From positions 1-13,716 of IMG/VR virus record IMGVR_UViG_2778261086_000003: a DNA stretch of 13,716 nt, one strand, 5' to 3'. A program made the translations under genes and the position numbers. Of this stretch, positions 1 to 13,716 are shown in pieces; within the stretch, counting starts at the first letter, position 1; each line of letters starts with the position of its first letter. The notes beneath the pieces were generated by a model, which did not search any database, was not told where the DNA came from, and saw only the letters and a list, made by a program, of their open reading frames with translations. This DNA comes from a virus (lineage: Duplodnaviria > Heunggongvirae > Uroviricota > Caudoviricetes).

Positions 1-867
1 TCAAAGGGGAGGTTCTGGTAGTTGCATCCAGTCGGTTACATTGCGACTCTGTGTTTCGAAAAATTCATCACCATTGCGGACAATATCGAAAAACTCTCCG
101 TCCCGATATTGCGCATAAAGAACGAATGCGCCATCACATAAAATAATTACGTGCTGATTATCATCAGGCATTCGCTCACTACAGCTTATCCAACCATCCG
201 GAGTTACCGGAACTTGCGGAATGGCTGTCTGCTCTCGAACGTCATTAGGCGCTATAGGTTCTGCTGCCAACTGACTGGCATATTTGTTAATGGTAACGAT
301 AAGCTCTTGCTCGGCCTCATCCAGACAATCACCGATACCTCGCCTGTCACCGTCAAAATCATCGAAATCGGCACGAATCTTGGCAACCTCCCGGATTGCG
401 GACAACACCTCACTAGGAATTACCGGATAGTTGGTTGACGTTTCCGCGATTTCCCGAAAATTATTGGTTGACGAATTCTTGTTTTCCCGAAAGTTTCCGG
501 ACTGAAGCATGGCGGCGCGGCAGGAGTTCCAGCCTCTCACCTCTGCAATAGCGGCAACAGCATCGACCGCGTACATTTTAAGAGGGTTAGGCATTGGTTT
601 TTCTTCAGGTACTACTGGCACTGGAGGGGTGGCATAAACAGGAATAACGTCCGATTGATCTTTATTACTTTCATCCGTCAAAGCCCAGAATAATTTCCCG
701 GCCGGATGTTTGAAAATATAAGCAACTGGATCTGCTTCCAGCGATGCCAGTGCAATTCGTGCCAGTTCTTCCGCTTCTTCTGCTGGCAGTACAACGTTGC
801 TACCAGGTCCGTATGTTTCGCGCCACTGCTTGATTGTAAGTAGTCGCTCTTTGGTAATAGTGGTCAT
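1..867 (-). CDS. DUF551-domain phage protein (288 aa)
   Basis: Complete ORF ending with a stop at 1-3. The C-terminal segment (MPDDNQHVIILCDGAFVLYAQYRDGEFFDIV...) resembles the DUF551 domain common in early-left regions of lambdoid prophages. Its start overlaps the stop of the upstream HNH gene by 4 nt. Family assigned from memory. Confidence 0.65.
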   Translation of the reverse strand: MTTITKERLLTIKQWRETYGPGSNVVLPAEEAEELARIALASLEADPVAYIFKHPAGKLFWALTDESNKDQSDVIPVYATPPVPVVPEEKPMPNPLKMYAVDAVAAIAEVRGWNSCRAAMLQSGNFRENKNSSTNNFREIAETSTNYPVIPSEVLSAIREVAKIRADFDDFDGDRRGIGDCLDEAEQELIVTINKYASQLAAEPIAPNDVREQTAIPQVPVTPDGWISCSERMPDDNQHVIILCDGAFVLYAQYRDGEFFDIVRNGDEFFETQSRNVTDWMQLPEPPL

Positions 868-1229
868 ACCGTAGCCCCTTCTTGATATTTTTCAAACCAG
901 AACACAACCGGGTCAGATTTCATTTCAACCAATCCCATACGAACCAGCGCTTTGCCTTTCCCGGATGCAAGGAATTCACGACGACCATCACTGATAATTC
1001 GCCGATAATCTTCCAGGCTACTGCAATGCTTGTGCAGATTGCATGGGTGGCATGCCGGAACCATGTTGGATATATCGTCACGTTCCTGGTGAAGCATATT
1101 TCCATCAAAACGAATGACCGGTTTTACATGGTCTGCATGCCACTTTTCGCCAAGTTCACAGCCGCAATAAGCACAGCGACCGCCAAACTTCATGCGCAAT
1201 TCTGCACGTTGTTTTTTCGTCAGTGCCAT
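864..1229 (-). CDS. HNH endonuclease (122 aa)
   Basis: Start placed at the internal ATG (1229-1227), preceded by GGAG and lying immediately after the upstream gene's stop (1231-1233); the longer ORF-track start at 1391 would overlap the Ead-like gene. Protein carries an HNH-type motif: CAYCGC...HADHVKP...CHPCNLHKH. Confidence 0.75.
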   Translation of the reverse strand: MALTKKQRAELRMKFGGRCAYCGCELGEKWHADHVKPVIRFDGNMLHQERDDISNMVPACHPCNLHKHCSSLEDYRRIISDGRREFLASGKGKALVRMGLVEMKSDPVVFWFEKYQEGATV

Positions 1230-1230
1230 T

Positions 1231-1920
1231 TCACTCTCCTTTGATGCGAATGCCAGCGGAGCGCTCGGCTTCACTTTGTTCCCAAAACCACTTGTGAAGC
1301 GCCATAAGCTTTTCGTCAATCGGTGCATATTTGCGATTAAAGTAGGCCTGAGCATCTTTCTCAGATTTGTCCGGCAATTCGCCAGGGCCAAACAGTGTGT
1401 TATAAATCCATGCCAGTCCGCTTTTAGCGTCGCCAGTTGCCTGCCATTCGATAATCGCAGCCTGCATGACCAGAATGTTTTTCCCGATTAACAGGTCCAG
1501 TTCTTTGAACCGGTTGCGGATGTATGCATTCTCGCTTTGTAATTTTGCGTTGCGCTTCTCTGCGGCTTCCAGCTCAACACGCAGCTTCCCTACCGTTAGC
1601 GCAATTTCCTCGTTCTCCTGGTCGCGGCGTTTGATGTATTGCTGTTTTCTTTCCAGCTCATCCAGCAGCGCCAAGACGGTAGCGGGATTGGCTGCGGCGA
1701 TGAATTCAGCATTGGCCTGCTGTTCCATTTGGAAATCTTCATCGAAACCGCTTTCTGGATGTGCTCCTTCAATTCTGCAAATAGGAATATATCCAGCAAC
1801 TTCACGATGAATTAGCGCATCATCACCATCAAATCGGCTCTCTCCATATTCGAGCGACCACTCACCACACGTTGCTTTTTCTGCCTTGGCCCGCAGTGCC
1901 TGAGAGTTAATTTCGCTCAC
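1231..1920 (-). CDS. Ead/Ea22-like phage early protein (229 aa), coiled-coil rich
   Basis: 229-aa ORF with a GTG start at 1920 that overlaps the TraR-like stop (GTGA). Central region is charged and heptad-like (ELERKQQYIKRRDQENEEIALTVGKLRVELEAAEKRNAKLQ). Composition and position match Ead/Ea22-family proteins of lambdoid phages. Confidence 0.6.
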   Translation of the reverse strand: MSEINSQALRAKAEKATCGEWSLEYGESRFDGDDALIHREVAGYIPICRIEGAHPESGFDEDFQMEQQANAEFIAAANPATVLALLDELERKQQYIKRRDQENEEIALTVGKLRVELEAAEKRNAKLQSENAYIRNRFKELDLLIGKNILVMQAAIIEWQATGDAKSGLAWIYNTLFGPGELPDKSEKDAQAYFNRKYAPIDEKLMALHKWFWEQSEAERSAGIRIKGE

Positions 1921-2138
1921 TTCGAACCTCTCTGTTTACTGATAAGCTCCAGATCTTCCTGGCAACTTGCACAAGTCCGACAACCCTGAACGGCCAGGCG
2001 TCTTCGCTCATCTATGGGATCGCCACACTCACAACAATGAGTGGCAGATATAGCCTGGTGGTTCAGGCGGCGCATTTTTATTGCTGTGTTGCGCTGTAAT
2101 TCTTCAATTTCTGATGCTGAATCAATGATGTCTGCCAT
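1917..2138 (-). CDS. TraR/DksA-family C4 zinc-finger protein (73 aa, lambda Orf73-like)
   Basis: 73 aa with a C-x2-C...C-x2-C arrangement (CCECGDPIDERRRLAVQGCRTCASCQ) typical of TraR/DksA C4 zinc fingers. Same size and position as the TraR homologue of phage lambda (Orf73). Confidence 0.8.
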   Translation of the reverse strand: MADIIDSASEIEELQRNTAIKMRRLNHQAISATHCCECGDPIDERRRLAVQGCRTCASCQEDLELISKQRGSK

Positions 2139-2144
2139 CTTTCA

Positions 2145-2234
2145 TTAATCCCTGAATTGTTGGTTAATACGCTTGAGGGTGAATGCGAATAATAAAAAAG
2201 GAGCCTGTAGCTCCATGATGATTTTGTTTTTCAT
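2145..2234 (-). CDS. candidate micro-ORF, 29 aa (MKNKIIMELQAPFLLFAFTLKRINQQFRD)
   Basis: Not in the ORF track (below its length cut-off). ATG lies 2 nt after the stop of the upstream 71-aa gene; its TAA lies 6 nt before the TraR-like ATG. It exactly fills the only gap in a tightly coupled operon. Speculative. Confidence 0.25.
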   Translation of the reverse strand: MKNKIIMELQAPFLLFAFTLKRINQQFRD

Positions 2235-2236
2235 GC

Positions 2237-2452
2237 TCACCGTTCCTTAAAGACGCCGTTTAACATGCCGATCGCCAGGCTTAAATGAGTCGGTGTGAAT
2301 CCCATCAGCGTTACCGTTTCGCGGTGCTTCTTCAGTACGCTACGGCAAATGTCATCGACGTTTTTATCCGGAAACTGCTGTCTGGCTTTTTTGATTTCAG
2401 AATTAGCCTGACGGGCAATACTGCGAAGGGCGTTTTCTTGCTGAGGTGTCAT
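2237..2452 (-). CDS. hypothetical phage protein (71 aa from ATG at 2452; alternative 93-aa form from 2518)
   Basis: ORF 2237-2518. I prefer the internal ATG at 2452 because it forms an ATGA overlap with the stop of the 27-aa micro-ORF upstream. No family recognised. Confidence 0.5.
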   Translation of the reverse strand: MTPQQENALRSIARQANSEIKKARQQFPDKNVDDICRSVLKKHRETVTLMGFTPTHLSLAIGMLNGVFKER

Positions 2453-2532
2453 TGAACAAGTCCCATGTCGGCAAGCATAAGCACACAGAATATGAAGCCC
2501 GCTGCCAGAAAAATGCATTCAGTGGTTGTCAT
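2449..2532 (-). CDS. candidate micro-ORF, 27-aa hydrophobic peptide (MTTTECIFLAAGFIFCVLMLADMGLVQ)
   Basis: Hand-translated from the minus strand. Its ATG overlaps the stop of the 63-aa gene (ATGA, 2532-2529) and its TGA overlaps the ATG at 2452 (ATGA). One predicted transmembrane helix. Not in the ORF track. Confidence 0.3.
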   Translation of the reverse strand: MTTTECIFLAAGFIFCVLMLADMGLVQ

Positions 2533-2720
2533 ACCTGGTCTCTCTCATCTGCTTCTGCTTTCGCCACCATCATTTCCAGCTTTTGTGAAAGGGATGCGGC
2601 TAACGTATGAAATTCTTCGTCTGTTTCTACTGGTATTGGCACAAACCTGACTCCAATTTGAGCGAGGCTATGTGCCATCTCAATGCTCGTTCTTAACTCA
2701 ACAGGAGATGCTTTGTGCAT
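2529..2720 (-). CDS. hypothetical small phage protein (63 aa)
   Basis: First ORF of the leftward gene chain, acidic C-terminus (AKAEADERDQV). No confident family assignment. Confidence 0.5.
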   Translation of the reverse strand: MHKASPVELRTSIEMAHSLAQIGVRFVPIPVETDEEFHTLAASLSQKLEMMVAKAEADERDQV

Positions 2721-3046
2721 ACAGCTCCCCGTTTATTATTTATCTCCTCAGCCAGCCGCTGTGCTTTCAGGGGATTTCGGGTAACAGAAAGGCCGGGAAA
2801 TACCCAGCCTCGCTTTGTAACGGAGTAGACGAAAGTGATCGCGCCTATGAAACCAAGGACCTGGTTGATGTCGTAACCGGCGAAATCACTACTATCCAGT
2901 CGTTACGCCATACCTCCGATCTTGATACCGGAGAGATGTATGTCTTCCTGTGTAAGGTTGAAGCCTGGGCGATGAATATTGGCTGCCACCTGACTATTCC
3001 ACAGAGCTGCGAGTTTCAGCTGCTGCGCGACAAGCAGGAGGCGTAA
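2672..3046 (+). CDS. hypothetical protein, possibly the 3' remnant of a nin-region gene
   Basis: Reading frame ends at a TAA (3044-3046) that overlaps the ninE ATG. It has no convincing ATG with a ribosome-binding site, and its 5' end overlaps the divergent 63-aa gene. May be a truncated remnant left by a deletion. Confidence 0.3.
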   Translation: MPSQCSFLTQQEMLCAYSSPFIIYLLSQPLCFQGISGNRKAGKYPASLCNGVDESDRAYETKDLVDVVTGEITTIQSLRHTSDLDTGEMYVFLCKVEAWAMNIGCHLTIPQSCEFQLLRDKQEA

Positions 3047-3216
3047 TGGCTACACCGCTTATTCGTGTCATGAACGGACACATCTACAGAGTACCAAATC
3101 GTCGTAAGCGTAAACCTGAGCTGAAGCCATCCGAAATACCAACACTGCTCGGATATACCGCCAGCCTGGTTGATAAAAAATGGTTGCGACTGGCAGCAAG
3201 GAGGAGTCATGGCTGA
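3046..3216 (+). CDS. ninE: NinE protein (56 aa)
   Basis: Hand translation [56 protein letters not shown] matches the NinE family. AGGAGG lies 6 nt upstream; the stop overlaps the ybcO start region. Confidence 0.85.
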   Translation: MATPLIRVMNGHIYRVPNRRKRKPELKPSEIPTLLGYTASLVDKKWLRLAARRSHG

Positions 3217-3499
3217 TTTGAGAAAAGCAGCGCGTGGTCGGGAATGCCAGGTAAGAATCCCTGGCGTATGTAATGGCAACCCTGAAACGTCTGTACTGGC
3301 ACATATCCGGCTGACTGGATTGTGCGGCACCGGTACGAAACCGCCAGACCTGATTGCCACCATTGCATGTTCTGCCTGCCACGACGAAATCGACCGCCGC
3401 ACGCATTTTGTTGACGCTGGATATGCAAAAGAATGCGCGCTGGAAGGTATGGCGAGAACACAGGTTATCTGGCTGAAAGAGGGGGTTATTAAGGCGTGA
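3209..3499 (+). CDS. ybcO: YbcO-family nin-region protein (putative Zn-binding nuclease, 96 aa)
   Basis: [37 protein letters not shown]... with GGAGG at 3201-3205. Conserved Cys/His pattern. Sits in the ninE-ybcO-rusA order seen in DLP12-type prophages. Confidence 0.85.
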
Positions 3500-3858
3500 A
3501 TACCTACAGCATCACATTACCCTGGCCTCCGAGCAATAATCGCTATTACCGCCATAATCGCGGGCGCACGCACGTCAGCGCAGAGGGGCAGGCATACCGC
3601 GATAACGTCGCCCGAATCATTAAAAACGCAATGCTGGATATCGGCCTGGCTATGCCTGTGAAAATCCGCATTGAGTGCCACATGCCGGATCGCCGTCGCC
3701 GTGACCTGGATAATCTGCAAAAAGCCGCTTTTGACGCACTCACTAAAGCAGGTTTCTGGCTGGATGATGCTCAGGTCGTTGATTACCGCGTTGTGAAGAT
3801 GCCTGTTACCAAAGGTGGGAGGCTGGAACTGACCATCACCGAAATGGGGAATGAATGA
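3496..3858 (+). CDS. rusA: RusA Holliday-junction resolvase (120 aa)
   Basis: GTG start overlapping the ybcO stop (GTGA). Sequence [28 protein letters not shown]...[10 protein letters not shown] is recognisable as RusA. Confidence 0.9.
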
Positions 3859-3995
3859 TGTTTGAGTTTTATATGGCAGAACTTCTTCGCCACCGCTGGG
3901 GGCATCTGCGCTTATATCGTTTCCCCGGTTCTGTTTTGACCGATTACCGAATACTGAAGAATTACGCCAAAACCCTGACAGGAGCAGGAGTATGA
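3855..3995 (+). CDS. ylcG: YlcG small protein (46 aa)
   Basis: Hand-translated: [50 protein letters not shown] overlap with the rusA stop. Lies between rusA and Q as in DLP12. Confidence 0.75.
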
Positions 3996-4080
3996 AGTCA
4001 GAGATAACAATCAACTAATACTGTTTTGTTGATTTTTGCTTGTAATTGGCGTTCTGGTCTGATTTTTGTGGAGTAAGTTG

Positions 4081-4458
4081 ATGCGTGATATTCAGATGGT
4101 TCTTGAGCGTTGGGGAGCGTGGGCGGCTAATAATCATGAAGATGTGACCTGGTCGTCCATTGCCGCCGGTTTTAAGGGATTAATTACTTCAAAAGTAAAA
4201 TCTCGCCCGCAATGTTGTGACGATGACGCGATGATTATTTGCGGGTGCATGGCCCGTCTGAAAAAGAACAACAGCGATTTGCATGATTTATTGGTGGACT
4301 ATTATGTCGGCGGCATGACTTTTATGGCGCTTGCACGTAAGCATGGGCGATCTGATTGTTGGGTTGGCAGGATGCTCCAGAAAGCTGAGGGCGTAGTGGA
4401 GGGTATGCTGATGGTGTTGGATCTCCGATTGGAGATGGATGCTGATTGTTCGAAATAA
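4081..4458 (+). CDS. quuD: late-gene antiterminator Q (QuuD-like, 125 aa)
   Basis: ATG at 4081 preceded by GGAG (4070-4073); the ORF-track start at 4066 is a TTG extension. [24 protein letters not shown]... resembles DLP12/phage-82-type Q. Followed by a terminator, as expected for the pR'/tR' arrangement. Confidence 0.8.
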
Positions 4459-4558
4459 TTAAAGGAAAAGTTGCTGTCTGATTGTCATTAGTCTAACATT
4501 TTAAATGTTGGAATCGCAACGTAGTTATTATCATATAACAGCTTGTTTCCTGATTTAG
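4459..4558 (+). promoter_or_regulatory. putative late promoter and Q-utilisation region
   Basis: Position only: in lambdoid phages pR' and qut lie between Q and tR'. Weak -35/-10 candidates (TTGCTG...TAACAT) but no confident match. Confidence 0.3.
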
Positions 4559-4585
4559 CCAGCCTCCCCAAAGGCTGGTTTTTTT
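4559..4585 (+). terminator. rho-independent terminator (tR'-like)
   Basis: Stem CCAGCCT (4559-4565), loop CCCCAA, stem AGGCTGG (4572-4578), then TTTTTTT (4579-4585). Plus-strand only; the reverse read has no U-tract. Confidence 0.65.
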
Positions 4586-4613
4586 CTAATAAGTATTATT
4601 TCGGGTAGGGATT

Positions 4614-5138
4614 TTATTGTTTAACCCATAATAATTCATTGACATTGAATCCCAACTTTTGAGCGGTTCGCACATAGTCTGCTTTTACTTTATCTGGAAT
4701 AGTTGGGGTCCTTGCCAGAATCCATAGGTATTCTCTGTTCGGACCACTGACAAGAGCATACTTATACTCATCATCCAGTTTGATTACATTATAGCCACCA
4801 TAGAAGGGGCCAAAAAACGAAACCTTCAATGCTGCAGTTTTAGTATCTCCAGTAAAGTATGCTTTACCTTCGCTCTCGCTCCATTTATTTTTCGTTGGAT
4901 CGTATCCACGGTTAAGTACACGAATCCCTCCGTCGTTCCGTTTTCCATAAGTAGCGCTGACCTGTTCCAGATCACGTTCGAACCGGTTCTCGAGGCGAGC
5001 TATTTCATACCATTTTCCGAGGTAGCGGTTGGCGTCAAAATTTGTAATCGGCTGCACACCTTTAGGTGGTGTCGGGGCCTTACATGCTATAAGAGTGAAA
5101 GAGAGTGCAATGCCAGTCAACACAGGCCATAACTTCAT
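4614..5138 (-). CDS. Blc-family bacterial lipocalin, outer-membrane lipoprotein (174 aa)
   Basis: Signal peptide with lipobox (LIAC), then lipocalin signatures (NFDANRYLGKWYEIARLENRFE...YLWILARTP). Homologous to but distinct from chromosomal Blc. Lower GC than flanking phage genes and antisense to late transcription. Confidence 0.85.
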   Translation of the reverse strand: MKLWPVLTGIALSFTLIACKAPTPPKGVQPITNFDANRYLGKWYEIARLENRFERDLEQVSATYGKRNDGGIRVLNRGYDPTKNKWSESEGKAYFTGDTKTAALKVSFFGPFYGGYNVIKLDDEYKYALVSGPNREYLWILARTPTIPDKVKADYVRTAQKLGFNVNELLWVKQ

Positions 5139-5330
5139 AATAAATCCTGTACTTTTGATAGTTGAGAGTAAGTATGAAAGATAGATGATTACGACCGATC
5201 ACTTAAAGAACTTTCATACTATATTAGGAATAGTCCATAACAGAAAAATTGTCAGTGATGACGCCAGAAAGGCAATTTATTCCGTGCACTACACAGTTTA
5301 TGTGTTAATGAATTAGTCAAGGGGGAGAAT

Positions 5331-6290
5331 ATGATAAAAAAACCTGTGATTGGAATCAGCGGTTGTTTGGCCGGTTCTGCTGTTCGTTTTGATGGTGGTC
5401 ACAAAAGAGCTGACTTTTTAATGGACAAATTAGTGGAATGGGTAACATTCAGACCAGTATGTCCGGAAATGGCTATAGGGCTGCCAGTTCCGCGTCCTGC
5501 TCTACGTCTTGTGCGCTCGACGCAAGGAAATATACGGATGTGTTTCAGCCACGACCAGAATGAGGATGTGACAGAGAGAATGACAGAGTTTAGTCGTTCT
5601 TATATGGACAAATTAAAGGATGTATCGGGGTTTGTGGTTTGTGCTAAATCTCCCAGCTGTGGCATGGAGCGCGTGCGTGTCTATGATGAAAATGGTAATC
5701 GAGGTCGTAAAGATGGAGTGGGACTATTTACGAGTACTTTGATGGAAAAGTTTTCCTGGCTACCGGTTGAAGAGGATGGGCGATTACATGATCCAGTGCT
5801 TCGTGAGAATTTTGTTGAAAGAGTTTTTGCTTTGCATGAGCTCAATCACCTTTACAAGGAGAAATTATCAAGAAGAGAGTTATTAGCTTTTCATAGTCGT
5901 TATAAGCTTCAGTTGTTGGCGCATAGTCAGGCAGGCTATAAAGATATGGGACCATTTGTGGCTGCAATACACGAGTGGGCGGACCTTGAATCATACTTTG
6001 AGGTGTATCGTGATAATCTGATGGCGATTCTCAGAAAACCAGCATCACGTAAAAATCACACGAATGTGCTGATGCATATACAGGGGTATTTTAGTAATTA
6101 CTTAAGTACACGCCAGCGTAAAGAGTTGAGCGAGGTTATACTTAACTATCGCTTTGGCACATTGCCTCTTCTTGCGCCGTTGACTCTGCTGAAGCATTAT
6201 CTGGGTGAGTATCCTAATGATTACTTGCTTACACAGAATTACTTCGATCCCTATCCGGACGAACTGGCTCTAAGACTGATGGTAAATTAA
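5331..6290 (+). CDS. DUF523-DUF1722 fusion protein (RudS/TudS-like putative thionucleoside desulfidase, 319 aa)
   Basis: N-terminus has the DUF523-type Cys pattern (GISGCLAG, PVCPE, CAKSPSCGM), consistent with a [4Fe-4S] TudS-like fold. The C-terminal ~150 aa resemble the DUF1722 (YbgA-like) domain. GGAG 4 nt before the ATG. Domain call from memory, not HMM-verified. Confidence 0.65.
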   Translation: MIKKPVIGISGCLAGSAVRFDGGHKRADFLMDKLVEWVTFRPVCPEMAIGLPVPRPALRLVRSTQGNIRMCFSHDQNEDVTERMTEFSRSYMDKLKDVSGFVVCAKSPSCGMERVRVYDENGNRGRKDGVGLFTSTLMEKFSWLPVEEDGRLHDPVLRENFVERVFALHELNHLYKEKLSRRELLAFHSRYKLQLLAHSQAGYKDMGPFVAAIHEWADLESYFEVYRDNLMAILRKPASRKNHTNVLMHIQGYFSNYLSTRQRKELSEVILNYRFGTLPLLAPLTLLKHYLGEYPNDYLLTQNYFDPYPDELALRLMVN

Positions 6291-6641
6291 TTGTATGCGA
6301 TATCATCCAAAAGGATGAGTTCCTGCATGCAGGATATTTACAATCGTAAAAACTACACTATGATACCCAGAGTGTCAGTTTGTATAAAAACTCTGTTTAC
6401 GCTGAAGAAACAATTGAGATGCAACTTAAAGTTGGTAAACATGCCAGTCAAAATATATAATATTATGATTCCACGCAGCTATATATAATATAACAGATTG
6501 GTTTAATAATTTGTCTTTGTGAGTTAAATACATAATTTTATACTTGTGATGCAATGAAATTTTCCTTATTGTTGAACTGGCGAATATTGATTTTCCACCT
6601 ATACTTACCTGGTGTAACCCCAATGATATCAGGTGGATAAT

Positions 6642-7373
6642 ATGCCATACATATGTTCTATCATTTTGGTGTTGAACTCGTTTGATGTCCGAATTGGTAA
6701 AGAAGATATTTTGTTTAAAAAAGGAAGTGCTGTTCTCATTGATTACAATTTAAAAGATTTTTTTTCATCAAATATAGATCATGTAATGATCGTAGATGTT
6801 GAAGAGAAAACAGTTAATGATTTCTTTAAAAGCAACACACTCTCACCTTTTTCTGTAAGAAGGTTTTATCCGGCATACTTGATGGTGGAATGTGAAGATT
6901 TTTCATTGTTAAAGAACTTGATTGCATGCTTGAATTGTGATGGCAGAACTGTGGATTTTGTTAGAAATCAAATATCACTTGCATGTCTTGCTATCTTATC
7001 TTCAGAGAAAATAGTGCAAAGTTTTTTATTTGGATGTCTTAATAGTTTAGGAAGTAAAGTTAAGGCTATTATTCACACGGATATATCTGCAGCATGGAGA
7101 CTTTGTGATATATCTTCAAGACTGTATCTGAGTGAAAGTCTGTTAAAAAGAAAATTAAAGCACGAAGGCTTATCATTTAGTAAGTTAATTCTTGAAGAGC
7201 GAATGGTGATGGCGGAAAGGTTATTAAGCTACAATTTATATTCTGTTGGAAAAGTTGCTGAGATATGCGGTTATGAAAACACGTCATATTTTGTAAGTGT
7301 TTTCAGAAGATATTTTGGTGTTCCTCCCCATCAATATTCATCAAGATTTTTTTTAGAAAAAGACATGATGTAA
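6642..7373 (+). CDS. AraC/XylS-family transcriptional regulator (243 aa)
   Basis: C-terminal AraC-type HTH region (LLKRKLKHEGLSFSKLILEERMVMAERLL...VGKVAEICGYENTSYFVSVFRRYFGVPPHQY). ATG at 6642 with AGGTGG 5 nt upstream; the ORF-track start at 6633 is a GTG extension. Very AT-rich gene and leader. Confidence 0.75.
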   Translation: MPYICSIILVLNSFDVRIGKEDILFKKGSAVLIDYNLKDFFSSNIDHVMIVDVEEKTVNDFFKSNTLSPFSVRRFYPAYLMVECEDFSLLKNLIACLNCDGRTVDFVRNQISLACLAILSSEKIVQSFLFGCLNSLGSKVKAIIHTDISAAWRLCDISSRLYLSESLLKRKLKHEGLSFSKLILEERMVMAERLLSYNLYSVGKVAEICGYENTSYFVSVFRRYFGVPPHQYSSRFFLEKDMM

Positions 7374-7434
7374 CGTGATGCGTTTTAATGATTTTGTAAT
7401 TTTCGTATTTGATAATTGTATGATGCTTTCAGCT

Positions 7435-7466
7435 ACGCCAGAATAATCGCTGGCGTTTTTCTTTTT
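7435..7466 (+). terminator. rho-independent terminator downstream of the AraC gene
   Basis: Stem CGCCAG (7436-7441), loop AATAATCG, stem CTGGCG (7450-7455), then TTTTTCTTTTT. Confidence 0.55.
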
Positions 7467-7561
7467 GAATAGATGTTCAAGCCTTACGCTAATGTAACTT
7501 CTATACCTTTCCTCTTCGTTCCGAACCGTGTACACCATCCGTTATTTGCGGAGGTGAGGCT

Positions 7562-7777
7562 ATGAAATCTATGGATAAGTTAACAACGGGCATTGCCTAC
7601 GGTACCTCCGCAGGCAGTGCTGGCTACTGGTTTTTACAGCTGCTCGATAAAGTCACGCCCTCACAGTGGGCAGCAATAGGTGTATTGGGTAGTCTGGTAT
7701 TTGGCCTGCTGACGTACCTGACAAACCTTTATTTCAAGATTAAAGAAGATAAGCGCAAGGCTGCGAGAGGTGAATAA
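7562..7777 (+). CDS. essD: class II holin (phage 21 S21-like pinholin, 71 aa)
   Basis: [26 protein letters not shown]...; two transmembrane segments; dual-start motif Met1-Lys-Ser-Met4. GGAGGTGAGG ribosome-binding site. Stop overlaps the endolysin ATG (TAATG). Symbol follows DLP12 naming. Confidence 0.85.
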
Positions 7778-8274
7778 TGCCTCCATCATTACGAAAAGCC
7801 GTTGCTGCGGCTATTGGTGGCGGGGCTATTGCTATAGCATCTGTGTTAATCACTGGCCCAAGTGGTAACGATGGTCTGGAAGGCGTCAGCTACATACCAT
7901 ATAAAGATATCGTTGGTGTATGGACTGTATGTTACGGGCATACCGGAAAAGACATTATGCTCGGTAAAACGTATACCGAAGCAGAATGCAAAGCCCTCCT
8001 GAATAAAGACCTTGCCACTGTCGCCAGACAAATTAACCCGTACATCAAAGTCGATATACCGGAAACAACGCGCGGCGCTCTTTACTCGTTCGTTTACAAC
8101 GTTGGTGCTGGAAATTTCAGAACATCGACGCTTCTTCGCAAAATAAACCAGGGCGATATCAAAGGCGCATGTGATCAGCTACGGCGCTGGACATACGCTG
8201 GCGGTAAGCAATGGAAAGGGCTGATGACTCGCCGTGAGATTGAGCGTGAAGTCTGTTTGTGGGGGCAACAATGA
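7777..8274 (+). CDS. rrrD: SAR endolysin (phage 21 R21-like lysozyme, 165 aa)
   Basis: N-terminal Gly/Ala-rich weakly hydrophobic SAR segment ([20 protein letters not shown]), then a T4-lysozyme-like catalytic core. Stop overlaps the next ATG (ATGA). Symbol follows DLP12 naming. Confidence 0.9.
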
Positions 8275-8503
8275 GTAGAGTAACCGCGATTATGGTTCGA
8301 AATGGGATGTTATCCGTGAACGTGTGCTCAAGCGTGACAAAGGACTGTGTCAGTTATGTCTGCGTGGTGGTGTGGTGCGTGAGGCGAAAACCGTTGACCA
8401 CATCATCCCTAAAGCACATGGCGGCACTGATGCCGACAGCAATCTGCAGAGCCTGTGCTGGCCGTGTCATAAGGCGAAGACGGCCCGTGAACGGCTGAAG
8501 TAA
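8271..8503 (+). pseudogene. Rz (spanin) start fused to the 3' fragment of an HNH endonuclease gene
   Basis: ATG at 8271 encodes MSRVTAI, identical to the first seven residues of lambda-type Rz, then diverges. A different frame (from ~8279, after an in-frame TAG at 8276-8278, to TAA 8501-8503) encodes SNRDYGSKWDVIRERVLKRDKGLCQLC...DHIIPKAHGGTDADSNLQSLCWPCHKAKTARERLK, an HNH C-terminus with no start codon. Confidence 0.6.
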
Positions 8504-8628
8504 GAACCAGTTCCCACTGCCAGAGGGGAGGGGCGGGTCAAATCCCTGTGACCTGACGTCTTCCGGACTGCCCGCCCCATCGTTTTTTTATACCCGCGAA
8601 AAATGAAATTTAACCAGGAGTGCCGCAT
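8504..8628. other. putative cos / packaging-site region
   Basis: Non-coding, GC-rich, with an imperfect inverted repeat (GGGGCGGG ... CCCGCCCC) and a T-tract, located between the HNH fragment and the small terminase gene, the usual cos position in HK97-like modules. Cleavage site not identifiable by eye. Confidence 0.3.
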
Positions 8629-9123
8629 ATGGCTGGAACGGCGGGGCGTTCCGGGCGTCGCCCCAAGCCAACGGCGCGCAAGGCGCTGGCCGGAAACCCC
8701 GGCAAGCGAGCCCTGAACAAAGATGAACCTGTTTTTACGCCCATCAAAGGTGTTGAGCCACCGGAGTGGTTCGCTGAAGAAGATCTCCCTCTCGCCACGA
8801 TCATGTGGCAACTGACAACCAAAGAACTCTGCGGTCAGGGCCTGCTGTGCGTGACTGACCTCGCGGTGCTTGAGCGGTGGTGCGTGGCCTATGAGTTCTG
8901 GCGACGTGCCGTGAAAAATATTGCCAGACAGGGCAACACCATCACCGGTGCAATGGGCGGCATGGTCAAAAATCCGGAGCTGACCGCCAAAAAAGAACAG
9001 GAGTCCGAGATGAGCAGCACGGGGGCAATGCTCGGACTCGACCCCAGCAGCCGTCAGCGTCTGATTGGCCTGGCGGGGCAGAAGAAAACCACTAACCCGT
9101 TTCTGAAAATCATCGAATCATGA
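8629..9123 (+). CDS. terminase small subunit (P27/HK97 gp1-like, 164 aa)
   Basis: ATG at 8629 with AGGAG 9 nt upstream; the ORF-track start at 8620 is a GTG extension. Basic N-terminus ([27 protein letters not shown]). Stop overlaps the large terminase ATG (ATGA). Confidence 0.8.
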
Positions 9124-9938
9124 GCCGGAAATCTTACCCCAACGTAAATGCTGCCAATCAGTATGCCCGGGATGTCGTGCGCGGAAAGATTGTGGCCTGC
9201 CAGTTTGTGATTCAGGCCTGCCAGCGCCATCTTGATGACCTGATGGAGGAAAAAAGTAAGTCGTTTCGTTACCGCTTCGACAAGGACCTGGCTGAACGGG
9301 CCGCGAAATTTATTCAGCTGTTGCCGCACACCAAGGGTGAGTGGGCATTTAAGAGGATGCCCATCACGCTGGAGCCGTGGCAGCTCTTTGTGATCTGCTG
9401 CGCGTTTGGCTGGGTCAATAAAGGCTCCCGGCTGCGCCGCTTCTGTGAGGTGTATACCGAAATCCCCCGTAAGAACGGCAAATCGGCAATCTCTGCCGGT
9501 GTCGCCCTGTATTGTTTTGCCTGTGATAACGAGTTTGGCGCGGAAGTGTATTCCGGTGCCACGACAGAGAAACAGGCGTGGGAAGTCTTTCGCCCGGCGC
9601 GACTGATGTGTAAACGCACACCCATGCTGACGGAAGCGTTCGGGATTGAGGTTAACGCCTCAAACATGAACCGTCCGGAGGATGGCGCGCGGTTTGAACC
9701 GCTGATCGGCAACCCCGGTGATGGTTCATCACCCCACTGTGCGGTGGTGGATGAATATCACGAGCACGCCACCGATGCGCTTTATACCACGATGCTTACC
9801 GGGATGGGGGCGCGACGTCAGCCACTGATGTGGGCCATCACCACCGCCGGGTACAACATTGAGGGGCCGTGCTACGACAAGCGGCGGGAAGTTATCGAGA
9901 TGCTCAACGGTTCGGTATCAAATCGGATGGCACGGTGA
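9120..9938 (+). pseudogene. terminase large subunit, 3'-truncated (N-terminal ATPase domain only, 272 codons)
   Basis: Walker A motif (EIPRKNGKS) and ATPase-domain sequence present. The reading frame stops after ...EMLNGSV, whereas intact large terminases are roughly twice this length. Downstream sequence switches to unrelated glycine-rich coding. Confidence 0.8.
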
Positions 9939-10600
9939 AAACGGCTCTCGAAAACCTTGGTTTGGGAGATGGCTCGGGGCGTTACAGCAAAACTGTCGTT
10001 TTTTCATCGTCGGGTTCATATACGTGGCCAGCTGACGTAAAACGAATTGACGTTATTCTGACTGCGGGGGGCGGCGGTGGCGGTGGATGTAACGCGGAGA
10101 ACGCAAATCAGACATTTTCAGGGGCTGGCGGAGGAGCCGGAGGTACTGTTTTTGCCACTATTTATGCGACAGACAACGATGCCGGGCCAGGGACCTATAC
10201 AGTGACAATTGGCAGCGGTGGTAGTGGTGCCAATGGGCCAGGGTCTGGAAATAATGGCGGTAATAGTTCGTTCATGACATTAACTGCGCTCGGCGGCCAG
10301 GGTGGGCAATGGGGCGGCGCTACAAATACCGCTGGCGGGCGCGGTGGCTCAGGCTCTGGCGGTTATAAAACTGAACAAGGCGGAGACGGTTCAGACGGAC
10401 AGGCGGGCCAGGCGCTATTAGTAGGCAATGGGGCATCGAGCTATTGGGGTGGCGGCGGCCGCGCTGGGCAACTGAGCGGTAATCCTGGAGTTTGCTCTGG
10501 CTCCGGCGGCGGGGGTGCATACGATAATAGCTATTCACACACGTCAGGACGTGGCGGGCACGGAGCTAATGGCGTGCTGGTAATTCGGGAGTTCATGTAA
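9869..10600 (+). CDS. glycine-rich tail-fibre C-terminal fragment (5' end missing; real start unknown)
   Basis: ORF of 243 codons overlapping the truncated terminase. Sequence ...[26 protein letters not shown]... followed by long GGxGG/GSG runs is characteristic of glycine-rich domains of phage tail fibres. Immediately followed by a tail fibre assembly gene. The first ~15 codons are probably terminase DNA read out of frame. Confidence 0.5.
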
Positions 10601-11005
10601 ATGAATGATATCTATGCAGTTGTTGATAATAACGTTGTTATTAATGTCATTATCTGGGACGGAATTTCTGAATGGAAACCAGAGGCTGGTAATTTAGTTC
10701 CGTTAAACGGCGATGCTGGCATCGGTTGGTCATATTCAGACGGAGTATTTACCGCGCCACCTCCCCCAGAACGCTCTCACAACGCGTTAGTTGCGGAGGC
10801 TGAGCTGCAGAAATCAGCACTACTGACCGTAGCAAATAACACAATAGCACCGCTGCAGGATGCCGTTGATTTGGAAATGGCGACAGACGATGAACAGGCG
10901 TTAATGCTGGCGTGGAAAAAATACAGGGTACTGCTGAACCGTGTTGATACCTCAGCGGCACCCGAAATAGAGTGGCCTACGCAACCGGGGGAGCGGGCCA
11001 GTTGA
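10601..11005 (+). CDS. tail fibre assembly protein (Tfa, 134 aa)
   Basis: C-terminus ...[48 protein letters not shown] matches the conserved Tfa chaperone C-terminal domain. Start is immediately after the upstream stop (TAAATG). Confidence 0.8.
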
Positions 11006-11129
11006 TATCAGGCGCAGCGTCAGCATCAACTGCTGTCACTGCGTCGATGTAGTCGAGTACCGCATTCAGCCGCGTTTTTTCATCATCAGTCAGTTTGCGG
11101 CCTGCACTTCTCCGTTGACATCTTTGTTA
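10977..11129 (-). pseudogene. decayed fragment of a second, convergent tail fibre assembly gene
   Basis: Minus-strand translation gives ...[38 protein letters not shown], sharing the TDDE...VD..AP.I.WP pattern of Tfa C-termini. No start codon in frame; upstream frames contain stops and a frameshift. Its 3' end overlaps the plus-strand tfa by about 28 bp. Confidence 0.4.
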
Positions 11130-11263
11130 TATGGTACAACTGCGCAGAGGCCTGTCTCTTCAATTGTGCCAGTTGAATACTACGATACAACGCTCGGCCT
11201 TCCTGTTTGGTGGAACATAACCACATCCACATGGAAAAGAGCTGATGGTGTAGATGTATAAAC

Positions 11264-11293
11264 TTAAAAAAGGCGCTTTTTAGCGCCTTTAAA
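11264..11293 (-). terminator. rho-independent terminator after the acyltransferase gene
   Basis: Stem AAAGGCGCT (11269-11277), loop TTTT, stem AGCGCCTTT (11282-11290). Read on the minus strand the hairpin is followed by a U-tract, directly after the acyltransferase stop at 11294-11296. Confidence 0.55.
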
Positions 11294-12415
11294 TTAAGAT
11301 ATTCTTTTAGCTATAGAATGACCTATATTTATAAACGGTTTTTCTATTACGTTATATATCAAGTAAGATAGGCTTATAGAAATTATGAGCGATGATATAT
11401 AAATGGCAAACGATCTATGTTCAGTGCTAATACCAATACTGGAACCGTAAAACTCAATAAACTGTATAACAGGAACATGAATCAGATAAAGTGAATATGA
11501 TATTCCACCAAGAGCAACAAGTGATTTATTGAATGAAATAACTTTATTATTTTCTAGAATAATAACACACAAAACAATCAGAAATGCAATATATGCAGAT
11601 CGCGTCAAACCATGTCCTTCAGACACCCCATTAAGCCAAAAAACAAACATCATTCCTAGAATGAAAACGCATAAACTATTTATAATAGAATTATTCATTC
11701 TTTTATGCCTAAGTAAAGGCATTGTCTCTGATATAATCATCCCTAAAATGAAATCATATACTATAGGATTGCCTATGAATCCTATATGAGAAAACACCCC
11801 TGTTTTTGCAATATTGAATGATTGGGCGTCAATTACTACCGAGTGGTTAAAGTAAAGAGAAATAATTGTACTTACAGCAACTAGAAAACATGATGTGATT
11901 AATACCCTGTATTTTATGCTTAATGACATGGATATTGCGAAAATAAAATAAAAATATATCTCGTACCCAAGTGACCATGAAACAATTAGCGTTCCCCACC
12001 CATAATATGGCGGTAGAGTTGAGACATCTAAAGGGATGAGAAGAAATGATTTTATAATATTATTTATAGAAAAAACACCACCCCATGATACGCCTGTGTA
12101 AATATTGTGGTAAAAAAGAAAAACATAAACGCTTAATACTATTGCGTAAACAGGATAAATTCTAAAAAATCTCTTTACAAGAAATGAGGCGGTATTTCTT
12201 AAAGATGTTTTTGTAAAGTTTTTAGTTGAGTATGATATTATAAATCCGCTTATTATAAAAAACAATTCAACTCCAAATATAGCATTCGCGGTTATCCTGT
12301 CCATGAAAGAACCAGGATCTACTTGCCCGAAAAGACCTCTATTATGACCAATAGCTACAGCAAGAGCTGCAATTCCACGAAGCGCTTCTATTCCGTATAA
12401 TTTATCTGTTTTCAT
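11294..12415 (-). CDS. acyltransferase-3 family integral membrane O-acyltransferase (Oac/OafA-like, ~373 aa)
   Basis: Multi-pass hydrophobic protein with the N-terminal acyltransferase-3 signature (LYGIEALRGIAALAVAIGH). Start placed at ATG 12415; the ORF-track start at 12418 is a TTG. Very AT-rich and adjacent to the integrase, as for O-antigen acetylase genes of Shigella phages. Confidence 0.85.
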   Translation of the reverse strand: MKTDKLYGIEALRGIAALAVAIGHNRGLFGQVDPGSFMDRITANAIFGVELFFIISGFIISYSTKNFTKTSLRNTASFLVKRFFRIYPVYAIVLSVYVFLFYHNIYTGVSWGGVFSINNIIKSFLLIPLDVSTLPPYYGWGTLIVSWSLGYEIYFYFIFAISMSLSIKYRVLITSCFLVAVSTIISLYFNHSVVIDAQSFNIAKTGVFSHIGFIGNPIVYDFILGMIISETMPLLRHKRMNNSIINSLCVFILGMMFVFWLNGVSEGHGLTRSAYIAFLIVLCVIILENNKVISFNKSLVALGGISYSLYLIHVPVIQFIEFYGSSIGISTEHRSFAIYISSLIISISLSYLIYNVIEKPFINIGHSIAKRIS

Positions 12416-12558
12416 CAAGTAATATAGTTAGTAGTTGATAAAATTGTTGCTGGAGTCTACCACCAAGAGCTTGGATGATCGACCAGTTAGCATCTCAAGC
12501 TGTATGCGTGAGACAAAAACGAGACACACAAAGCTTTGCAAGTCTTTGCGCTGTTTAC

Positions 12559-13716
12559 CTATGATACCTTCTCCTCAATCCAATCCGCCCACCACTGCAT
12601 CATTTCTCTGCGCTTATCGAGATACTGAGCATGGTTGTAAATCCCGCGCACAGATCCGCCGTTGGCATGTGCCAGTTGCACTTCAATAGCATCAGCAGGC
12701 CATTCGTGCTCGTTCATAATCGTGCTGAATTCATGCCTGAATCCGTGACCGCTTTCCAGACCTTCATAGCCGATTTGTTTGATCACAAGCAGTACAGCGT
12801 TCTCGCAAATTGGCTTCTTCTTATCGTTGCGCCCGGCAAAAACAAACTCTGATACTGGTTTGGTGATTGAACTTAGCGTAGTGAGAAGTTCAACTACCTG
12901 GTCTGACATAGGAACCACATGAATCTTGCGTCCCTTCATCACACTGGCCTCGATGGTGATAATCCTGTTTTCAAAATCGACGTTCTTCCATTGCATGGAA
13001 CGAAGCTCTTTTGTTCTTAGTGCTGTGTAGCGTAAAACTTTGGTCGCAATGAGAGATACGATACTTCCTGAAAATGTTGCAAGTGCTTTGTTGAATGCCG
13101 GGATCTGGTCGGCAGGTAAAAACGGGAAGTTCTTCTTGCGGTATCCTTTCATGGCGTCTGCAAGGTCAGGTGCCGGGTTATATTTAGCCCTTCCGGTGAC
13201 AATAGCGTAACGAAAAACCTCGCCGCATCTTCTGCGGGCTTTGTTGGCTCGCTCCATTGCACCGCGATCTTCAAATCTTCGGATTACTTCCAGCAGTTGC
13301 ATCGGCTCAATATCCTGAATTTCAAGACCGCCGATGATGGGTAAAATGTCGTCATCAAACATTTTGGCAAGTTCAGTTGCATAGCCTACTGACCAGACTT
13401 GCTTCTTGTGCTCGTACCATTCCTTGTAAATCGCACTAAATGAATTGTTGTTAGACGAAGCCTTTTTCGCCTTTACCGGATCGATGCCAACCGAGATGTC
13501 TTTCCTCGCAGTCCATGCCTTATCCCTTGCTTCCTGCAAAGTCATAAGCGGATATTTTCCGACAGTCAGGATTTTCTCCTTACCGTCAATCTTGTAGCGA
13601 AGCTGCCATACCTTTTTCCCTGATACAGGGACATAAAGGTACAGGCCATTACCATCGAGTAGGCGGTATGGTTTTTCTTTCGGCTTTGCTGCTTCAATCT
13701 GCTTAACGGTGAGCAT
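12559..13716 (-). CDS. tyrosine-type site-specific integrase (P4/CPS-53 IntS-like, 385 aa)
   Basis: Full ORF whose ATG is the last three bases of the window. C-terminal catalytic signature (HGFRHEF ... LAHANGGSVRGIYNHAQY). N-terminus MLTVKQIEAAKPKEKPYRLLDGNGLYLYVPV is typical of tRNA-associated P4-family integrases. Attachment site would lie beyond the window. Confidence 0.9.
   Translation of the reverse strand: MLTVKQIEAAKPKEKPYRLLDGNGLYLYVPVSGKKVWQLRYKIDGKEKILTVGKYPLMTLQEARDKAWTARKDISVGIDPVKAKKASSNNNSFSAIYKEWYEHKKQVWSVGYATELAKMFDDDILPIIGGLEIQDIEPMQLLEVIRRFEDRGAMERANKARRRCGEVFRYAIVTGRAKYNPAPDLADAMKGYRKKNFPFLPADQIPAFNKALATFSGSIVSLIATKVLRYTALRTKELRSMQWKNVDFENRIITIEASVMKGRKIHVVPMSDQVVELLTTLSSITKPVSEFVFAGRNDKKKPICENAVLLVIKQIGYEGLESGHGFRHEFSTIMNEHEWPADAIEVQLAHANGGSVRGIYNHAQYLDKRREMMQWWADWIEEKVS

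Follow-up and report, generated by a model that had tools for sequence, protein, structure and literature searches.

The window analysed here is a 13,716-nt Caudoviricetes record of IMG/VR (IMGVR_UViG_2778261086_000003, positions 1–13,716). It contains, in an E. coli lambdoid prophage, rusA (3496–3858, + strand) followed by ylcG and then by the gene for a Q antiterminator, whose stop codon occupies 4456–4458 (Table 1). The Q product aligns with PF06530 over the entire profile (positions 1–118/118; E 9e-51) and with PHROG 79 (E 2e-50), and shows a distant kinship to the solved Q21 protein (PDB 6P18; E 2e-7). With QuuD, encoded by the cryptic prophage DLP12 of K-12, it shares 88% identity; residues 1–76 of the two proteins are identical and 14 differences are found in residues 77–120, the predicted HTH. 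The locus is the usual late-gene switch of lambda-like prophages of E. coli, with three passenger genes placed between it and the lysis genes.

Table 1. Features of the Q-to-lysis region; positions are counted from the first nucleotide of the window.
Feature	Position	Strand	Characteristics
Q antiterminator gene, 125 aa	4081–4458	+	QuuD-like branch of the Q21/933W family; ATG start as in RefSeq
Predicted pR'	4471–4499	+	-35 TTGCTG 4471–4476, N17 4477–4493, -10 TAACAT 4494–4499; predicted start ~4505–4507
Predicted leader hairpin of the short late transcript	4510–4550	+	From the fold of 4506–4590
Intrinsic terminator tR'	4557–4586	+	Stem 4557–4565/4572–4580, loop 4566–4571, U7 to 4586
Cargo 1: Blc outer-membrane lipoprotein (lipocalin)	4614–5138	-	PF08212 (E 1e-43); antisense to the late transcript
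Cargo 2: YbgA family, DUF523/2-thiouracil desulfurase domain plus DUF1722	5331–6290	+	PF04463 (E 8e-40), PF08349 (E 8e-40)
Strongest predicted sigma-70 promoter of the araC-like gene	6432–6461	+	TTGGTA N18 TATAAT, 10/12, 12.8 bits
Cargo 3: AraC-family regulator, YdeO-like, PsrA paralogue	6642–7373	+	PF12833, PF00165
Second intrinsic terminator, end of cargo	7435–7466	+	Hairpin 7435–7456 and T-run to 7466; ΔG -12.1, z -2.7
Lysis-gene leader	7467–7561	+	No promoter above background; last ~35–45 nt shared with phage 21 and other S21-type cassettes (alignment with phage 21, DLP12)
S21-type holin	7562–7777	+	PF04971 (E 2e-35)
Lysozyme	7777–8274	+	PF00959 (E 7e-47)

The original prediction placed an intrinsic terminator about 100 bp past Q, in the tR' position, and such an element is present 99–128 nt after the stop codon. 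Its nine base pairs and 6-nt loop give a ΔG of -14.9 kcal/mol (z -3.9 against shuffles). The terminator is kept in all variants, and the sole substitution seen in its stem-loop lies in the loop. The T-run of tR' and the holin start (7562) are 2,976 nt apart, and blc on the minus strand and the second terminator lie between them, which agrees with the predicted distance of almost 3 kb across an antisense gene and a second terminator.

The three cargo genes occupy this interval. The Blc product scores 314 bits against the NCBIfam Blc subfamily model, for which the cut-off is 267. The alignment of the araC-like product with the NCBIfam YdeO model (E 7e-37) spans the whole protein but stays below the model cut-off; the product is 48% identical to the EHEC prophage regulator PsrA (Sakai ECs_1087) over 159 aa. 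Activators of the GAD acid-resistance system include PsrA, PsrB and PatE (PMC10877973). The GC content of the araC segment is 31–33%, as against 47–55% for the phage genes. Three predicted promoters precede the araC-like gene, at 6337–6364, 6432–6461 and 6517–6544, with 10/12, 10/12 and 9/12 consensus positions and scores of 11.2–12.8 bits; these are the best sigma-70-like sites of the region. The terminator that follows the gene is conserved in the 1H12, L062, L063 and L068 lineages, in which its flanks vary. Because it has a predicted promoter of its own, a terminator of its own and a deviant GC content, the araC-like gene fits the definition of a moron. The sequence features thus suggest that the late-operon leader harbours all three passenger genes as morons, and that the araC-like gene at least could be expressed in the lysogen too. 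In sister modules the same slot holds nmpC, a methylase gene, a tRNA or psrA, and in phage 21 it holds tRNAs only. All three cargo types of this Q subfamily begin, past the post-Q terminator, with a gene antisense to the late transcript (blc at 4614–5138; nmpC at 3530–5826 of locus L002; a 148-aa ORF at 6451–6897 of locus L126). In locus L125, an IS1 end stands in place of the araC 3' end and the pre-holin terminator, and several E. coli genomes have IS1, IS2 or IS3 within the cargo.

The arrangement is widespread. Of 5,426 complete E. coli genomes, 955 contain the 3.9-kb ylcG-to-holin stretch at a coverage of at least 80%, most of them with an identity above 99%. About 100 IMG/VR loci carry the block; every locus that has the same Q allele and is long enough also has blc and ybgA, and the araC-like gene is present in nearly all IMG/VR loci with the window-type Q allele. 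Complete phage genomes carry the block as well, at 99% identity in IdasGreatGrand and 87–95% in 1H12, Lambda_ev087 and their relatives, so that the divergence of the cargo follows that of Q, and a complete phage genome can accommodate it. The distance from Q to the holin is 1.9–3.1 kb in window-type, DLP12-type and class-3 modules alike, each allele having a different cargo. The class-3 allele is found in locus L126 and 13 others (L127–L139), where the cargo consists of the antisense 148-aa ORF and methylase-like or other genes; nmpC-type sister modules, with nmpC antisense, are present in the complete phage genomes mEp332, ev099 and the 434B recombinant. The lysis genes had been described as "now separated" from the switch, that is, as a derived and disrupted state. 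This part of the original prediction does not hold. The cargo is conserved in every locus with the Q allele (~100) and has co-diverged with Q, and the sister alleles fill the slot too; the separation is therefore the standard, conserved architecture of the module rather than a recent disruption.

The closest relative is the DLP12/qsr' module (quuD, nmpC, essD-rrrD-rzpD), whose flanks are 94–97% identical to the window up to 4440 and from 7551. The intervening 4441–7550 is replaced, with the porin gene nmpC in the place of blc-ybgA-araC, and the post-Q DNA is unrelated. Since the homology stops at 4440 and resumes at 7551, the exchanged unit comprises the Q end, pR'-tR', the cargo and the holin leader. 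The two modules nevertheless share antisense cargo directly after the post-Q terminator and a terminator before the holin, and both are kept in a defective prophage. The Stx phages (933W, Sakai Sp5 and Sp15), ordered Q, pR', tR', tRNAs, stxAB and lysis genes, likewise combine a Q of the Q21/933W family with host-relevant cargo ahead of the lysis genes. There, Q-modified polymerase starting at pR' reads through tR' into stx before it comes to the lysis genes (PMC7547250, PMC6266700), and the cargo may have its own promoter, as in the case of stx1. The window differs in its cargo and in the antisense orientation of the first cargo gene, and read-through, experimentally established in the Stx phages, is inferred here. 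Sakai Sp4 has a Q (ECs_1084) that is 82% identical, followed by a CAAX protease gene, psrA (ECs_1087), tRNAs and the late genes. As in the window, a gene for an AraC-like regulator (48% identical) follows Q towards the late genes, and the top pR' candidate has the same offset, but the other cargo genes differ and no clear terminator is seen in the 150 nt after its Q.

A Q-dependent late promoter had been predicted ahead of tR'. In a weight-matrix search of 4440–4600, the top candidate is TTGCTG-N17-TAACAT (9.4 bits); its -35 hexamer starts 13 nt 3' of the Q stop codon, and the T-run of the terminator ends at +128 from the same codon. Sites of at least this score occur about 0.2 times per 100 nt by chance and about twice per kb per strand across the window. 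The candidate agrees with the consensus at 7 of 12 positions and thus falls below the threshold of the 9/12 consensus scan, which no site in 4459–4556 passes.

The position of this candidate is shared with other Q alleles. Phage 21 (OL657228; 6P18, 6JNX) has a Q of the same PF06530 family and an S21-type holin and lysozyme downstream. The -35 element in its curated record begins 7 nt beyond the Q stop, the 17-nt spacer is taken up by the two Q-binding subsites, and transcription starts 42 nt beyond the stop; a pause element and the terminator come directly afterwards, and the T-run ends 88 nt past the stop, all elements being contained within the 91 nt that follow it. A promoter within ~13 nt of the Q stop, a 17-nt spacer and a short terminated transcript are thus features of phage 21 that the predicted layout of the window reproduces, shifted by 6 nt and with a longer leader. 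The similarity is one of layout and not of sequence: the Q proteins are ~28% identical, the promoter DNA is dissimilar and does not contain the TGAGCA repeats, and the stretch from tR' to S, which in phage 21 spans ~280 nt with two tRNA genes, here spans ~3 kb with three protein genes and a second terminator. Of the two phages suggested for comparison, phage 21 was therefore informative in its layout only, and phage 82, whose Q belongs to a different family, is the wrong comparator. In two sister alleles of the same QuuD-like Q subfamily, unrelated in post-Q sequence, the top candidates fall at nearly the same place: TTGAGG-N17-TAATGT starts 12 nt after the stop in the class-3 locus L126 and is followed by a hairpin with a T-rich tail, and ATGAGG-N17-TATAAT starts 13 nt after the stop in Sakai Sp4. 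A top candidate at an offset of 12–14 nt with a 17-nt spacer was obtained in 49/3000 shuffles for L126 and 40/3000 for Sp4, each less than 2%. Because the layout matches that of curated phage 21 and the offset and spacing recur in these two alleles, we infer that pR' lies at 4471–4499 and that transcription would start near 4506.

The search for the accompanying regulatory elements was less productive. The 4477–4493 spacer, where a Q-binding element would be expected, contains no TGAGCA repeat of the phage 21 type and no clean 8-bp direct repeat, the only repeats in it being loose (ATTGTC/ATTAGTC). A TGTC repeat with an 8-bp period was considered as a Q-binding element and was weakened by the variation at position 4484 of the predicted spacer, where G, T, C and A all occur among loci that are otherwise 97–100% identical here. 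For a sigma-dependent pause element, no -10-like hexamer (A at position 2, T at position 6) is present at +1 to +10 of the predicted start. The nearest such hexamers are CAACGT at +12 and, at +21 to +29, TATTAT (4526–4531) and TATCAT (4529–4534), the latter two of which might, speculatively, serve as sigma-dependent pause elements. The prediction of a Q-dependent promoter thus stands in so far as a plausible pR' candidate precedes the terminator; the candidate lies below the 9/12 scan, and no Q-binding or pause element was found to accompany it. Comparison of 4459–4590 with phage 21 pR' and with the post-Q DNA of DLP12 and class 3 revealed no sequence homology. The window and class-3 alleles share no post-Q motif despite their near-same predicted HTH; in L126 (6001–6450; likewise L127–L139), the class-3 Q has two conservative changes in residues 77–110 relative to the window Q, yet its post-Q DNA is unrelated. 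The motif ATATAACAG, present at 4533–4541, again at 6488–6496 and after DLP12 quuD, was rejected as a shared qut or promoter element, as an equal local alignment score was reached in 494/2000 shuffles; its 9-mer count across the window equals the expectation. A 20-nt repeat with ATATAACAG is seen at 4529–4548 after Q, at 6484–6503 before the araC-like gene and at 3405–3424 of L002 after DLP12 quuD; it is non-significant against shuffles and probably due to chance.

The window itself represents a prophage remnant. ORF 2672–3046 is a fused reading frame in which the NinB C-terminus makes up the second half, with a deletion junction at ~2838, and no repressor, Cro, N, O or P gene was detected within the window. 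The match to intact relatives is lost at 8293 and picks up again within an HNH gene, so that the spanins are missing, and the large terminase gene (TerL) is cut at 9916 and fused to tail-fibre and tail-fibre-assembly genes. The right end, adjoining the truncated tail-fibre genes, carries an acyltransferase-3 family gene (11294–12418, - strand) and a P4-type integrase gene with an arm-binding domain (12559–13716, - strand). Transcription of the cargo "late in induction", as originally envisaged, does not apply to this copy, which has lost the repressor, N, O, P, the spanins and most morphogenesis genes. Because its immunity and replication regions are deleted, it cannot be induced by itself, and late transcription of the cargo would require Q to be supplied otherwise. 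These deletions lend some weight to the idea, unlikely though it seems to us, that the cassette is an inert relic in the present genome, in which Q is not made in a regulated way and what matters to the host is limited to the short pR'-tR' RNA and the cargo expressed from promoters of its own. Against this, Q and both terminators are intact and near-identical to those of complete phages, as are all three cargo genes and the genes for holin and endolysin, and Q could come by upstream read-through or from a co-resident prophage with the same allele. The idea concerns the use of the cassette in its present host and leaves the identity of the element as a late-control and lysis module unaffected.

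A separate strong promoter directly upstream of the holin, with no read-through from the Q region, had been named as the observation that would speak against the original prediction. In a sigma-70 weight-matrix scan of the 7467–7561 leader none rose above background; the best site, TTGAAT-N19-TAATGT, reached 6.9 bits, the background being ~7.6 sites per kb at 7 bits or more. A 23-nt deletion in 1H12 takes out the -35 of this site, and indels of 7 nt and 23 nt lie between the putative elements of the leader among relatives.

It could further be argued that 4557–4586 does no more than terminate the delayed-early transcript of Q, and likewise that of the convergent blc, and that the true late promoter lies just before the holin with 7435–7466 as its tR'. 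Q and blc do converge on this hairpin, and the post-Q promoter candidate is weak. A TATGAT at 7419–7424 with TTGTAA 19 nt upstream (8.6 bits) precedes the second terminator. DLP12 too has a terminator ~125 nt before essD, and the Q- and RpoE-dependent control of essD reported for DLP12 (Rueggeberg 2013, 2015, as cited in PMC7918800) concerns a regulatory fragment from in front of essD. We nevertheless regard this arrangement as improbable. TTGTAA-N19-TATGAT together with the hairpin 7435–7456 was rejected as a second pR'-tR' cassette: the DNA upstream of the terminator is not conserved in the L062 lineage despite a Q that is 96% identical, the 19-nt spacer is unfavourable, and in class-3 modules, which have the same Q HTH, the coding stop of a methylase-like ORF is only 9 nt before the pre-holin terminator, other members having a tRNA or unrelated cargo there. 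In class 3, therefore, only the 84-nt post-Q spacer is left for a late promoter. The post-Q candidates, moreover, are positionally conserved across unrelated alleles, and no U-tract follows the 4557–4586 hairpin on the minus strand, so that it would be a poor terminator for blc. Little credence is given to a Q-independent promoter of the lysis genes, for example a stress-sigma one as for DLP12 essD, that would make read-through from the Q region needless for lysis: work cited in PMC7918800 reports that the DLP12 lysis cassette is controlled by RpoE and Hha, and GTAACTT at 7490–7496 is, by eye, loosely like a sigma-E -35 element, but the leader has the scan result and indels given above, the ~20-kb morphogenesis operon behind the lysis genes of intact phages still requires antiterminated transcription, and a basal promoter could coexist with Q read-through rather than replace it.

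Read-through from a promoter directly after Q, as originally proposed, is the most likely mechanism. The QuuD-like Q would be made from the early-right operon, and a constitutive sigma-70 promoter would lie directly past its stop codon, at about 4471–4499. When Q is lacking, the transcript would stop ~80 nt on, at the tR' hairpin. When Q is loaded onto RNA polymerase at the promoter, tR' would be ignored, and the Q-modified polymerase would run through blc against the direction of that gene, transcribe ybgA and the araC-like gene in their own direction, pass the second terminator and reach the holin and endolysin genes; where the phage is intact, it would continue through all of the morphogenesis operon. 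The Q family, the two terminators, the gene content, the conservation of the block and its presence in complete phages are direct observations; the promoter position, the loading of Q there and the read-through are deduced from the sequence. Complete phages carry an identical block and no other late promoter was detected, which supports the view that in intact phages with the block all late transcription has to cross the cargo, transcribing ybgA and araC and running antisense through blc. We consider it likely that the explanation as a whole is correct, namely that 4081–8274 is one mosaic late-control-plus-lysis module of a lambdoid phage, with pR' after Q and Q-mediated read-through across the cargo.

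The arrangement is already familiar from the Stx phages, and the understanding of Q antitermination is unchanged by it; what is new is a version of the cargo that is very common in E. coli. Host-relevant genes in the leader of a lambdoid late operon could be expressed both via their own promoters and, upon induction, by Q read-through. For QuuD-like Q alleles, the order of a promoter ~13 nt past the stop, a terminator and an antisense first cargo gene may serve as a guide to annotation. The analysis also flags a module with a PsrA-like regulator outside EHEC.

The RNA terminated at tR' (4506–4586) is predicted to be ~80 nt long with two hairpins; the fold of 4506–4590 has a ΔG of -24.0 and a z of -3.75. 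A search of 3900–7700 against Rfam returned nothing at the gathering score. In Stx phages, the terminated short RNA StxS can act as an sRNA (PMC7547250). By analogy, the pR'-tR' RNA might be a trans-acting, StxS-like sRNA present in about one-sixth of complete E. coli genomes, and Q activity might place a YdeO/PsrA-like regulator of acid resistance and a thiouracil-desulfurase-like enzyme under the influence of prophage activation, a proposal we offer as a long shot. HnrS, an sRNA of an EHEC prophage, is almost confined to EHEC and EPEC, unlike the present module (PMC13502914). Locus L013, on the same contig as L094, has an insertion of ~1.3 kb (5435–6749) flanked by an 8-bp duplication of window positions 4507–4514; this IS-like element falls exactly at the predicted start of the late transcript.
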